A DNA stretch of 37,176 nt, taken from IMG/VR virus record IMGVR_UViG_3300017992_000055; one strand, written 5' to 3'. The position numbers were made by a program, and so were the translations under genes. Positions 32,675-35,097 of the stretch are shown piece by piece (positions within the stretch are counted from its first letter, which is position 1; every line of letters starts with the position of its first letter). A model generated the notes under the pieces. That model saw nothing but the letters and a program-made list of their open reading frames with translations, was not told where the DNA came from and did no database searches. The stretch is from a virus.

Positions 32675-33337
32675 TTAGACGGGCGTCTCGGTGATCCGGT
32701 TGGGCGCATTTTCTGGCCCGCGCGGTTCCATCGAGGCTTCGATCTGCGCCACGTCGACGCGGTTGTCGTTGCCTGCGAAGGTCATCAGGTACGCGAGGAT
32801 CTGTTGGTACAGACCGTAAACGCGCAGCGAGTCGTGTCGGGTGATGAACCGCGAACGCTCGCGCGAGTTGAGTCGCGTCCAGGTTACGATCACTGTGTCG
32901 ACGGCCGACAACAGGATCCGGCCGTTGCCGCTCATGTTGAGCTGGCTGTTCACCGGGATGTCGACGTCCTGGCCCGAGAAGTCCCAAGGGAGTTGGTACA
33001 TCTGCGTGGCCGGCATCTGGATGTCGTCGCCACCAAACGGATTGGCAGCATCGGTGATGTCCGCAGTTGCGTCGATCGCCGTAGCGATCTTGTCGCCGAG
33101 ATCAGCACCGTCTGGGTTATGAGTAACCCGGCGACGCCAGCGATCAGCGTTGACAAGCAGCTGCAGAAAATGGTCTCTCGACGGGTCGTCGAGACCGCCT
33201 CGGTCGCGGAGATCTTCACTGTGGACAATCTCCGAGCGCAGCAACATCAACGGCTGCAGACCGGCGGCGATGTGATGGTTTCGGCATTCCGTGATTACGT
33301 TACGGAATTGTTCGACGCCAGGGTCACCTACTGGCAT
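32675..33337 (-). CDS. hypothetical protein (220 aa)
   Basis: ORF. Confidence 0.4.
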   Translation of the reverse strand: MPVGDPGVEQFRNVITECRNHHIAAGLQPLMLLRSEIVHSEDLRDRGGLDDPSRDHFLQLLVNADRWRRRVTHNPDGADLGDKIATAIDATADITDAANPFGGDDIQMPATQMYQLPWDFSGQDVDIPVNSQLNMSGNGRILLSAVDTVIVTWTRLNSRERSRFITRHDSLRVYGLYQQILAYLMTFAGNDNRVDVAQIEASMEPRGPENAPNRITETPV

Positions 33338-35097
33338 GACTGGTCTCCTTTGGTGGGAGTTGAATGATAGGTTGCTGCCGGCGCCATTTCATTGAAGCGT
33401 CTCAGCAGCGTGTCCTTCATTATACGCGCCCAGTCATTCTCAGGTCCAGAGGGCTCTTGGTCAATTTTCTTGTCAAGTTCGTCGAGAGTAAGTCGGCCGA
33501 TAAGTGCATCAAGTATCGGCGAACGTCCTTCGAGCTCCGAAAGTCGTATAAATTCCTGTGCTTCCGAGATGTCTCGGGGCACTGTGTCGTGGGTGGGAAA
33601 CGTATCGGGCTCGGAAGCCCCTCCTTGCCCAGGCGGCGTCACGGGCGGGTCAACAGGCGGTACGACAGGCGGATCTGTGGGCGGTTCGATGGGCGTAACA
33701 GGCGGCAAATCAGGCAGTTTTGGCGCAGGCTTGCCGCGGAACCAGCAGAACGCCTTGTAGATACCAAAGCCGAGCGCCAGCAATCCGCCACCACCTGCCG
33801 ATCCTGTCAGTAGCCACATGAGCGCCTGCTGCACCGACGGCTTTACCATATCCCAGTTTGACGGTTCGTCCGGCTCGGTTACCGTGGGCGGCGGATCGTT
33901 ATTTGTCGGCGGCTCTACAGGCGGCGTAACCGGAGGGTCAACTGGCGGCGTAACCGGAGGGTCAACTGGCGGCGTAACTGGGGGTTGCACAGGTGGTTCG
34001 ACCGGCGGCTGTACAGGTGGCGTAACCGGAGGCGTAACTGGCGGTTCAACAGGAGGTTCAACAGGCGGTTCAACCGGTGGCACCACTGGCGGCACTACAG
34101 GCGGTGGCTCAGCTGGCGGCGCAACTGGTGGCGTCACTGGTGGCACTACAGGCGGTGGCTCGACCGGCGGTGTCACCGGAGGCGTGACAGGCGGCTGTAC
34201 AGGTGGCGTAACCGGAGGCTCGACCGGGGGCGTAACCGGAGGCGTGACAGGTGGCGTAACTGGGGGCACGACAGGCGGCTGTACAGGCGGCTGTATTGGC
34301 ACCAGTGGCGGCCGCGGCTTTGGCGGCTGCGGGTACGGCGGGAGAATGAACTTCAACAGCGCACGCACACGCGGAAAGTAAGGTCCGCAGCAGCAGTTAC
34401 CGTCAGTGCCGGTGATCAACCCTACGACTTCACCGCGCGACGTGTAGATCGGTCCGCCGCTCATGCCGCTGATTGCCGGCCCTCGGAACTCGATGACCGA
34501 GAGCGTGCGCCCTTGATCGAACGATAGCCATTTGCTGAACGTCCCCTTTGTGACGCGGTATGTAGTATTCATCGCCCAGCCGGACGCCCAATATATCTCG
34601 CCTTGCCTGGGCGGGCCTTTTGCGAAGCGCACCGGCTTGATACCCGGATCGTCGATCTCGACGACGGCTACATCATAGAGATGGTTGTAGCGCAGCATTC
34701 GTGCCTTGAGCATCTTGCCGTTGATCAGCGTGACCGTCACAACGGCCCCAGGCTTGTAGCCATGGGCGCAGGTGATCACGTGCGCTTTACCGTCCTTCTG
34801 TGCTGCAATAAAGCCGCTGCCGGCCAGTTCGCCGAATGCTACCTTGACCACCTGTTCGCAGGGTGGTGCTGCTGGAAGTGCTGGCGGCGCTGGTGCGGCC
34901 CAGGACTGCGATGGCGATGCGCGCCATTGGGTTTCGTGCGGCAGCTGCATCAGCAGCCCGCGGTAATCCTGCCGGCTAGGCGAATTGCGCTCTTCCCAGG
35001 GAACTACTTCATAGATGTCTACAGAACGGGGCTGGCCCGCAGCTACGGTTGGCAGCAGTAGGCATGCCAACAGGCAGAAAAGCGTACAGCATCTCAT
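33328..35097 (-). CDS. secreted trypsin-like (S1) serine protease with a roughly 200-aa PPVx proline-rich stalk, a C-terminal transmembrane anchor and a cytoplasmic tail
   Basis: Signal peptide MRCCTLFCLLACLLLPTVAAG, with an AAGGAG ribosome-binding site upstream; catalytic His in TCAHGY and Asp in DVAVVEID, and a GMSGGP Ser motif; about 50 repeats of PPV(T/E/Q/D); transmembrane segment ALMWLLTGSAGGGGLLALGFGIYKAFCWF. Confidence 0.6.
   Translation of the reverse strand: MRCCTLFCLLACLLLPTVAAGQPRSVDIYEVVPWEERNSPSRQDYRGLLMQLPHETQWRASPSQSWAAPAPPALPAAPPCEQVVKVAFGELAGSGFIAAQKDGKAHVITCAHGYKPGAVVTVTLINGKMLKARMLRYNHLYDVAVVEIDDPGIKPVRFAKGPPRQGEIYWASGWAMNTTYRVTKGTFSKWLSFDQGRTLSVIEFRGPAISGMSGGPIYTSRGEVVGLITGTDGNCCCGPYFPRVRALLKFILPPYPQPPKPRPPLVPIQPPVQPPVVPPVTPPVTPPVTPPVEPPVTPPVQPPVTPPVTPPVEPPPVVPPVTPPVAPPAEPPPVVPPVVPPVEPPVEPPVEPPVTPPVTPPVQPPVEPPVQPPVTPPVDPPVTPPVDPPVTPPVEPPTNNDPPPTVTEPDEPSNWDMVKPSVQQALMWLLTGSAGGGGLLALGFGIYKAFCWFRGKPAPKLPDLPPVTPIEPPTDPPVVPPVDPPVTPPGQGGASEPDTFPTHDTVPRDISEAQEFIRLSELEGRSPILDALIGRLTLDELDKKIDQEPSGPENDWARIMKDTLLRRFNEMAPAATYHSTPTKGDQSCQ
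33600..34320. repeat. 12-bp-period tandem repeat (consensus about ACCGGAGGCGTA/GGTGGCGTAACC) encoding the PPVx stalk
   Basis: Visible periodicity in the sequence; the ORF in the alternate frame reads GGSTGGVTGG... Confidence 0.6.

Follow-up and report, generated by a model that had tools for sequence, protein, structure and literature searches.

A phage gene for an S1 protease on a PPVx stalk, with a conserved tail domain and a partner gene, as a candidate envelope-acting module of Planctomycetota phages

The 37,176-nucleotide stretch of viral DNA recorded as IMG/VR virus record IMGVR_UViG_3300017992_000055 (the whole stretch is called the window here) carries on its minus strand a gene for a membrane-anchored serine protease of unusual architecture, which is the target gene of this study. 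In the encoded protein, a predicted signal peptide is followed by a chymotrypsin-fold S1 protease domain, a long stalk built of PPVx tetrapeptides, a membrane segment, a short spacer, and a conserved C-terminal tail domain, and a gene for a partner protein lies directly downstream. Both this architecture and the assignment of the protein to a family of protease-anchor-tail proteins can be stated with high confidence. The module appears to be undescribed, as its tail and its partner match no model in Pfam, NCBIfam, PHROGs, or PADLOC. The architecture is anchored by comparative data; the function is proposed from gene context only, and the likeliest, still tentative, reading is that of a late-acting envelope breakdown or lysis function in a jumbo phage of Planctomycetota.

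The ATG at 35097 is preceded, at a spacing of 6 nucleotides (nt), by an AAGGAG Shine-Dalgarno sequence, and a longer, GTG-started version of the target would run into a tRNA-Ile gene. This start was therefore kept, and the coordinates given in an earlier note on this DNA, 33328-35097, are right. That note, made from the letters of the window, had also listed a signal peptide, an S1 domain, a polyproline-type stalk, an anchor, and a cytoplasmic tail in this order; the order is borne out, but the conserved domain within the tail and the downstream partner gene had been missed. Hydropathy rises above 1.5 only at the N-terminus of the target, where the sole strongly hydrophobic window of 19 residues corresponds to MRCCTLFCLLACLLLPTVAA, followed by GQP. 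With the V-A-A site at its end, MRCCTLFCLLACLLLPTVAA was judged by hand to be a cleavable Sec signal, in line with the earlier claim, and N-terminal hydrophobic segments are also present in most full-length members of the family. A lipoprotein signal (LLAC, residues 9-12) is unlikely, since the hydrophobic stretch ahead of LLAC is just 7 residues long.

The protease domain is well supported by profiles. Pfam Trypsin_2 (PF13365) matches amino acids (aa) 93-227 with 65.1 bits against a cut-off of 27.6 (E=1.5e-17) and is covered at all of its 144 model positions, and the domain matches the hidden Markov model (HMM) of the family with E=3e-92. The segments TCAH112, YD142VAVV, and GMS213GGP align with the catalytic residues of HTRA1, so that the His-Asp-Ser triad, which had been read from motifs before, is intact. 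With both the profile score and the triad in agreement, the target is a member of peptidase S1/Trypsin_2. Matches in the PDB include HTRA1, DegS, DegQ, and MucD (E ~1e-5), as well as the S1C-like domain of the anti-sigma factor RsgI9 (PDB 7sjy). A Pfam scan at E<=1 found no PDZ domain in the target, and the proline-rich stalk follows directly after the protease domain. A prohead protease or a virion depolymerase was considered and is ruled out by the signal peptide and the membrane anchor.

Proline accounts for 46% of the residues in aa 241-420. The core of the stalk measures ~134 aa and the whole proline-rich tract 161 aa, which is less than the ~200 residues first proposed, and the count of ~50 PPVx tetrapeptides has to be lowered as well: 30 exact units stand ahead of the membrane segment (aa 270-395), or ~33 tetrads if PPPV/PPAE variants are included, and 4 further units lie beyond it, where additional repeats had been correctly noticed. 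The PPVx repeat is far beyond chance, no other open reading frame (ORF) of the window has such a tract, and a single uninterrupted frame connects the protease, the array, and the conserved downstream domains. At the DNA level, a 12-nt period extends over ~33901-34302 (core array) and over the short stretch 33625-33684; the periodicity described earlier thus stands, but neither its continuous span of 33600-34320 nor its description as a satellite does. In Tandem Repeats Finder (TRF), the repeat DNA gives 68-80% matches. There are 26 distinct 12-mers among the 34 units, all four proline and all four valine codons are in use, units with an identical peptide share a mean DNA identity of 82%, and the longest exact internal repeat in the array is 35 bp. 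The repeat DNA is not a clean satellite, and the peptide pattern has been kept while synonymous sites diverged, which argues against frequent slippage along the array and also against a simple assembly artefact.

Polyproline-II helices rise by ~0.31 nm per residue. If the spacer takes up such an extended conformation, the core would span ~41 nm and the whole tract ~50 nm when fully extended, and this length would exceed a typical Gram-negative periplasm.

The array varies in length in one place. In two further contigs, which are independent k141 assemblies (L023 and L025), the ortholog of the target is 581 aa long with an array of 31 tetrads and is otherwise nucleotide-identical to the gene in the window. 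The difference lies in a 24-nt PPVT-PPVD unit, GTTACGCCGCCAGTTGACCCTCCG, of which the window has two tandem copies and these contigs one; it is the only perfect tandem duplicate of the array, and the Logan contigs L027 and L028 end at this site. Either a slippage or unequal-exchange polymorphism or an assembly difference could account for it. A true polymorphism is favoured, because the two k141 assemblies agree and because a 35-bp repeat should not confuse assemblers. The data thereby support one young duplicate inside an otherwise old, degenerate array, i.e., expansion and contraction in a limited form. The slippage envisaged in the earlier note may accordingly hold for the 24-nt indel, but the rest of the array, with its synonymous divergence, is a poor substrate for it. 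An assembly artefact behind the repeat tract or its length, which would make the long stalk unreal, is scarcely credible: assemblies do disagree by 24 nt and short-read contigs break within the array, but the unbroken frame connects a Pfam-supported protease with a conserved membrane segment and tail, most units differ synonymously, the k141 assemblies share their array, and the spacers of relatives are equally long.

The membrane segment was modelled by AlphaFold, with a 29-sequence alignment as input, as two helices (aa 422-430 and 439-453) with the glycine run between them. Its sequence in the window, ALMWLLTGSAGGGGLLALGFGIYKAFCWFRGK, is homologous to that of relatives (LPAILAGLGWTGPPA...RRRRKRR) and is followed by fewer basic residues; a hydrophobic, Gly/Pro-kinked segment with subsequent basic residues, located between linker and tail as throughout the family, is present in the window. 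On the positive-inside rule, and given the RRRRKRR that follows the helix in relatives, a type I topology is predicted, with a single kinked pass between a periplasmic protease and a cytoplasmic tail. A C-terminal tail was rightly proposed, at roughly 110 aa; beyond the membrane segment there are 137 aa, which comprise a spacer of ~54 aa and a domain of ~70 aa, and ~100 of these residues come after the last PPVx units. In the AlphaFold model this domain consists of three helices (aa 510-522, 527-547, and 552-571; pLDDT 82-96), and the tail HMM recovers it with E=4.8e-36. A combined full-length alignment was discarded, as unrelated C-terminal extensions had been aligned onto the tail. Foldseek returned nothing significant for the tail fold in the PDB or BFVD, and sequence profiles of the tail gave no match in PDB, Pfam, NCBIfam, PHROGs, or PADLOC. 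A CARD/death-fold assignment (caspase-9 CARD, E=0.5) was ruled out on the three helices and on the lack of a significant fold match in the PDB or BFVD.

The tail defines a large family. When the last 100 aa of the target were used as phmmer query (E<1e-3, representatives at 50% clustering), the tail domain was found in 129 cluster representatives, 40 of them below 1e-10 and the best at 56-61% identity. The match lies at the extreme C-terminus in every case, in proteins of ~400-670 aa. The motif common to the window and the family is PRDxxEAxQxLRLSxLEGRxPxxDAxxGR...RFNxxAP, which in the inspected members reads PRDDxEAxQFLRLSQLEGRSPLHDALVGRIAFDELDKAID...WAR...RFNEMAP. These inspected members begin with either a signal peptide or an N-terminal helix, continue with an S1 domain and a linker rich in Pro/Ala, and end with a hydrophobic segment of LPAILAGLGWTGPPALAAVVGLKVLSAIIRRRRKRR type and the tail; a CPxGxCP motif is often present, and the linker often contains a coiled-coil stretch. 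Across 76 fused members, the catalytic serine is present in 75, the histidine in 67, and the aspartate in 69, with the misses mostly being gaps in partial sequences.

The distance between protease and tail is of particular interest. The spacer has a median of 154 aa (range 82-271), and that of the window, with 242 aa, is the fourth longest. Proline makes up a fraction of 0.39 of the linker in the window, whereas the family has a median of 0.12 and does not exceed 0.24. Judged from these comparisons, a long spacer is a family trait, and its construction from PPVx is special to the window. That spacers are always long implies a distance requirement. Internal exact repeats of at least 7 aa occur in 7 of the 76 linkers; P0088 carries one motif on both sides of the membrane segment, as the window does, and the linkers of some relatives contain coiled-coil or collagen-like GPP runs. 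The nearest relative with the full architecture, P0073, reaches 45% identity in its protease and 54% in its tail, and shares with the window the LPPYP junction and a GGGG-containing membrane segment. Its linker, however, is a non-repetitive mixture of acidic, proline-rich, and coiled-coil sequence without PPVx, so that the PPVx array is lineage-specific.

Several related proteins deviate from the common layout. With the N-terminal 257 aa as query, a word-indexed search yielded almost nothing but P0001 (L001 407-4240; 45% identity), the closest protease homolog, which has a signal peptide, the protease, a proline-rich and coiled-coil segment, and a GPPGPPGPAGP collagen-like run, and which is without anchor or tail; its gene is neighboured by genes for a phrog_1128 (YiiX-like) protein, a coiled-coil protein with an N-terminal transmembrane helix, and a tail-spike-like protein. 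An N-terminal thioredoxin precedes the S1 protease in P0083, P0084 (= L009 345-2357), and P0092. In P0102 and P0160, the latter also with a thioredoxin, the protease is replaced by an HExxH metallopeptidase-like region, and P0106 combines anchor and tail with a coiled coil only. The unit of anchor, tail, and partner looks like a modular platform. In a split subclade (L011 6866-8279, L012 6944-8420, L020 2255-3821), the protease-anchor gene stops after the membrane segment (...GAGGRR...) and the tail is encoded by its own ORF, which lies in the +1 frame and overlaps the 3' end of the protease gene; many stand-alone tails of 80-140 aa, starting with MPEVAA..., were also found. This arrangement looks like a gene split rather than a frameshift signal. 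A programmed frameshift that would join split protease and tail is not supported, since most split tails have their own ATG (MPEVAA...).

Homologs of the partner gene (46-76% identity) immediately follow the gene that encodes the tail in all 12 loci found, i.e., the window, nine IMG/VR contigs, and two Planctomycetota prophages, and are absent from the four loci whose related protease does not carry this tail (L001, L004, L006, L007). This strict co-occurrence suggests that tail and partner may interact. The partner is also the better conserved protein, with the above identities against ~25-45% for the protease. Profile searches of the partner gave no match in Pfam, PHROGs, NCBIfam, PADLOC, or the PDB. 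A terminator-like hairpin stands just beyond the partner gene, and the tRNA-Ile(GAU) directly upstream probably shares a transcript with the target. The small ORF after this terminator (32369-32638, minus strand) encodes a cysteine-rich, zinc-ribbon-like peptide with a lysine-rich tail, and is called as a 65-aa gene in matching contigs.

The partner protein was found with identical sequence on 10 public contigs, whereas no match came from an exact DNA search or a protease-pattern search of IMG/VR, or from look-ups of the exact protein in its 589-aa and 602-aa versions. One contig of 226,517 bp (L023; ERZ27256796 k141_2629452), reached only by way of the partner, is 99.72% identical to the window across 13.6 kb, from which it follows that the window is part of a jumbo phage genome. 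There are 38 tRNA genes in the window, all on the minus strand (5431-36332), with small ORFs interspersed; they serve nearly all amino acids and include 3 tRNA-Pro, 2 tRNA-Val, and 3 tRNA-Thr. Together, the tRNA set and the 226.5-kb match mark a tRNA-rich jumbo phage, and a GpA-type terminase is encoded in the window as well. The module was found only in phage contigs and in Planctomycetota prophages, and all named relatives belong to Planctomycetota (Planctomycetia, Planctomycetaceae, Bythopirellula), so the host is probably a member of this phylum. The mycolate-type cell wall suggested in the earlier note has no support, and a mycolate/actinobacterial host was rejected on these names and on the matches to Gordonia phages, which are tRNA genes only. 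Among deposited phages (INPHARED, GenBank), no match to the partner protein was found, the protease gave only two weak Listeria fragments, and matches at the DNA level were confined to tRNAs.

The neighbours of the module in related loci point to the envelope. A gene for a ~200-aa protein is located directly upstream in 7 of 16 loci. Pfam had no match for these proteins, and a PDB profile search was needed, in which they matched the Bacillus cysteine peptidase 3kw0 (E=3e-9) and, weakly, YiiX; on these matches, the protein is a permuted papain-like (NlpC/P60 superfamily) peptidase of the YiiX/C92 type. Other immediate neighbours encode a class-3 lipase (Lipase_3) together with an SNase-like membrane protein (L017) and a C14 caspase-like peptidase (L022), and small single-transmembrane coiled-coil proteins are encoded within 1.5 kb downstream in most loci. 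As for phage genes, a primase and DUF5131 are encoded in L008, a large terminase of GpA type lies 5 kb downstream of the module in L009, and in L010 the module comes after a virion structural protein and an alpha/beta hydrolase. Both prophages, one in a 5.66-Mb genome (L011) and one in a Planctomycetota metagenome-assembled genome (L012), have the same order: host MoCF_biosynth and Exo_endo_phos genes, the ~200-aa protein, protease-anchor, tail, and partner, followed by a protein of ~103 aa that has a hydrophobic helix at its C-terminus, a ParB-like protein, an ATPase/acetyltransferase, TerS-like protein, TerL, and portal. In Planctomycetia, the loci L004 (3314-5377) and L006 (7003-8927) occupy the prophage chromosomal site after MoCF_biosynth and Exo_endo_phos; they encode a YiiX-like peptidase and a protease-linker-anchor protein with another conserved tail (VVERHHNxYVxYE...KAWAAAHA...), are without partner and terminase, and may be domesticated prophage remnants.

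It is on these neighbours, namely, the cysteine peptidase, the lipases, the thioredoxin fusions, the small membrane proteins, and the position upstream of the terminase, that a role in envelope breakdown or lysis is considered most likely; of the envelope roles suggested in the earlier note, lysis is the one that fits the neighbours in related loci. Planctomycetes have a Gram-negative cell plan in which the periplasm can be greatly enlarged (PMC5394234). In the mechanism proposed here, the protein would be exported by the Sec pathway and its signal peptide cleaved, leaving an active HtrA/MarP-like S1 protease in the periplasm. The protease would stay tethered to the cytoplasmic membrane by a stiff spacer of polyproline-II type (~33 PPVx tetrads, ~40-50 nm if extended), and the kinked, glycine-rich membrane segment would lead through the short PPVx spacer to the three-helix tail in the cytoplasm, where the 220-aa partner most likely binds. 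The two-gene module would act late in infection on the host envelope: through a planctomycetal periplasm that is variable and often enlarged, the spacer would bring the protease within reach of envelope proteins distant from the inner membrane, and the tail-partner pair would control or localise the protease from the cytoplasmic side. The protease may either degrade envelope proteins or activate a co-encoded wall hydrolase such as the adjacent cysteine peptidase. The latter is proposed by analogy with MarP, which, according to a passage of PMC9897464 citing Botella 2017, can cleave the NlpC/P60 hydrolase RipA in vitro; the phage protease, too, is often encoded beside a peptidase of the NlpC/P60 superfamily (YiiX-like). 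A more far-reaching possibility, to which only a modest chance is given, is a new class of trans-envelope machinery in Planctomycetota phages, in which proteolysis-based lysis or egress with YiiX-like peptidase, thioredoxin, or lipase partners, timed by a cytoplasmic tail-partner switch that sets off the periplasmic attack on an unusual, protein-rich envelope, would replace or supplement the holin-endolysin-spanin route.

A number of points weigh against a lysis function. No experiment or annotated homolog ties the protease-anchor-tail family to lysis, and a literature search on Planctomycetes phages or proteases returned nothing specific. The window copy itself lies inside an island of tRNA and auxiliary genes, with no cysteine peptidase, lipase, holin-like gene, or recognisable endolysin adjoining it and no YiiX-like homolog in the window by tblastn, so that the lysis-like context comes from relatives. 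The module sits at the prophage edge, a usual place of lysogenic-conversion genes, and the retention of the peptidase-protease pair in chromosomal remnants without terminase points to a benefit for the host. As the tail is a separate ORF in one subclade, its covalent tethering is not essential. Furthermore, the tail has no informative structural neighbour, the single-sequence model of the partner was unusable (pLDDT 45), the small transmembrane proteins were called by hydropathy only, and the host assignment is indirect.

Several of these points would suit a role in lysogenic conversion or superinfection exclusion, in which the tethered protease, in the periplasm or at the inner face of the outer membrane, would cleave either a receptor for phages or ejection proteins from incoming phages and so shield the infected or lysogenic cell. 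The module stands at the very edge of Planctomycetota prophages with host genes adjoining, the protease persists in the terminase-less remnant loci L004 and L006, and the pair in the window has promoter-like and terminator-like signals of its own and lies among auxiliary genes that modify surface glycans. This explanation is nonetheless regarded as unlikely: the degradative enzymes and the small transmembrane or coiled-coil neighbours, just upstream of packaging genes, are reminiscent of a late or lysis region, the module is also carried by a jumbo phage whose large tRNA set fits a lytic lifestyle better, and beyond the generic protease domain no PADLOC model matched.

The module could also be a transmembrane switch for signalling or regulated proteolysis with an anti-sigma-like logic, in which a periplasmic event would make the tail hold or release the partner as output. 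Such a switch would be in keeping with the strict co-occurrence of tail and partner, with the far better conservation of the partner, with the S1C-like domain in RsgI9, and with the glycine-rich, helix-breaking membrane segment, which could be a substrate for intramembrane cleavage. It is less probable again, however, since no DNA-binding, sigma, or other domain is recognisable in the partner, known anti-sigma factors have the opposite orientation, the triad is conserved whereas S1 domains of the sensor type often lack activity, and the tail can be a separate protein in the split subclade.

Comparison with known systems bears on a further alternative, namely that of an auxiliary quality-control protease with HtrA-like housekeeping, which would keep the envelope functional through a long infection. 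HtrA, DegS, DegQ, and MarP are the best sequence matches, and the gene stands among auxiliary metabolic and host-takeover genes. With HtrA/DegP/DegS/DegQ (S1C), the target shares the chymotrypsin fold, the His-Asp-Ser triad, the GxSGGP motif, and an extracytoplasmic location. It is, however, no member of HtrA/DegP (TIGR02037 and relatives), with 43.1 bits against a cut-off of 416.2: the HtrA family has PDZ domains and an N-terminal anchor, whereas the target, which is phage-borne, has no PDZ and a C-terminal (type I) anchor, to which a long spacer, the cytoplasmic tail, and the partner gene are added. The best NCBIfam match is to MarP (Rv3671c of Mycobacterium tuberculosis), which likewise has no PDZ and is a periplasmic S1 protease anchored in the membrane, in its case through N-terminal membrane helices. 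MarP differs from the target in that it is without proline stalk, tail, and partner, and the target does not belong to its family either (NF033740; 49 bits against 250, over the catalytic domain only, with a signal peptide alone at the N-terminus). Quality control is therefore a poor candidate: scores are far under the family cut-offs, the conserved tail, partner, and long spacer are without a role in known quality-control proteases, and the module is phage-specific.

Other systems resemble the target in part of its design. TonB uses a rigid, proline-rich extended segment to project a functional domain from the inner membrane through the periplasm. TonB and TolA share with the target a proline-rich or extended, periplasm-spanning spacer on the inner membrane; the likeness is proposed as a physical one, with no sequence relationship implied, and TonB differs in its N-terminal anchor and receptor-binding domain and in having no enzyme. 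Gram-positive proline-rich, wall-spanning surface proteins and GlyGly-CTERM/PEP-CTERM proteases (VesB) have the same order of parts from signal peptide to basic residues. The target, however, has no LPXTG or PEP motif and no match to an NCBIfam C-terminal sorting signal at E<=0.01, and its membrane segment is not such a signal, since another 137 residues, among them a conserved domain, come after it. Spanins (Rz/Rz1) are also phage-encoded, membrane-anchored, and periplasm-spanning, and the module in relatives lies near small transmembrane or coiled-coil genes upstream of the terminase; an i-spanin, however, has the opposite orientation, with its anchor at the N-terminus, whereas the target has a protease and an anchor near the C-terminus. 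An o-spanin partner was not identified, nor was any homology to spanins found; the product of the downstream gene is a soluble protein of 220 aa.

The features of the target gene and its surroundings are collected in Table 1. The auxiliary set in the tRNA island encodes a sulfotransferase, a cytidylyltransferase, a nucleotide-diphospho-sugar transferase, a NodZ-like fucosyltransferase, a radical-SAM protein, and a methyltransferase. A major-vault-protein-like protein, unusual in a phage, is encoded in the window too, as are a full-length DUF7873 protein (E=3e-92; 30098-30862, minus strand) and a protein with two Clp_N repeats (E=2e-30; 15373-16020, minus strand). At 24700-24772, within overlapping ORFs, 2.1 copies of a 35-bp sequence (GCGGAACAGCATGTCGTGATAGTGAATTCCGCCGA) form a perfect direct tandem repeat.

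Table 1. Coordinates of the target gene, its predicted parts, and other features in the window
Feature	Position	Strand	Basis or remark
Target gene, 589 aa	33328..35097	minus	ORF and Shine-Dalgarno; signal peptide-S1-stalk-membrane segment-spacer-tail
Putative signal peptide MRCCTLFCLLACLLLPTVAA, aa 1-20, cleavage before GQP	35038..35097	minus	hydropathy; -3/-1 rule by hand
Chymotrypsin-fold S1 protease domain, aa 93-256	34330..34821	minus	PF13365, HTRA1/DegS alignment, family HMM
Triad codons His112; Asp142; Ser213	34762-34764; 34672-34674; 34459-34461	minus	
Pro-rich stalk, aa 253-413 (161 aa)	33859..34341	minus	composition, tandem-repeat analysis
24-nt unit (PPVT-PPVD)	33955..33978	minus	two copies in window, one in L023 and L025
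Membrane segment ALMWLL-TGSAGGGG-LLALGFGIYKAFCWF, then RGK; aa 424-452	33742..33828	minus	AlphaFold, homologous segment in relatives
Predicted cytoplasmic spacer, aa 453-506	33580..33741	minus	4 PPVx units at 33625-33684 (aa 465-487)
Conserved C-terminal tail domain, aa 507-577	33367..33579	minus	phmmer, HMM, AlphaFold
Partner gene, 220 aa	32675..33337	minus	next ORF; start overlaps target stop by 10 nt
Terminator-like hairpin, 9-bp stem, 7 GC pairs, T-rich tail	32644..32667	minus	consensus match only
tRNA-Ile(GAU), directly upstream of target	35176..35248	minus	probably co-transcribed with target
Promoter-like site	35285-35313		consensus match only
Glycan/surface-modifying and other auxiliary genes	4633-5346, 7723-8388, 9218-9871, 25351-26427, 26466-27251, 6341-6889	minus	
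Major-vault-protein-like protein, 845 aa	21469-24006	minus	MVP_shoulder E=7e-23, Vault_3 E=4e-9

How phages enter and leave Planctomycetes is almost unstudied, and the envelope of these bacteria, with its variable periplasm, differs from that of model Gram-negatives. Should the target be an ordinary accessory protease, the value of the finding would be the annotation of a new domain and gene pair only. As a phage-specific module with at least 129 protein clusters and a strict gene pair, it is a candidate for an envelope-acting function in Planctomycetota. The PPVx array offers a natural molecular ruler, and the spacers of 82-271 aa, together with the two-unit polymorphism, make the distance requirement testable.

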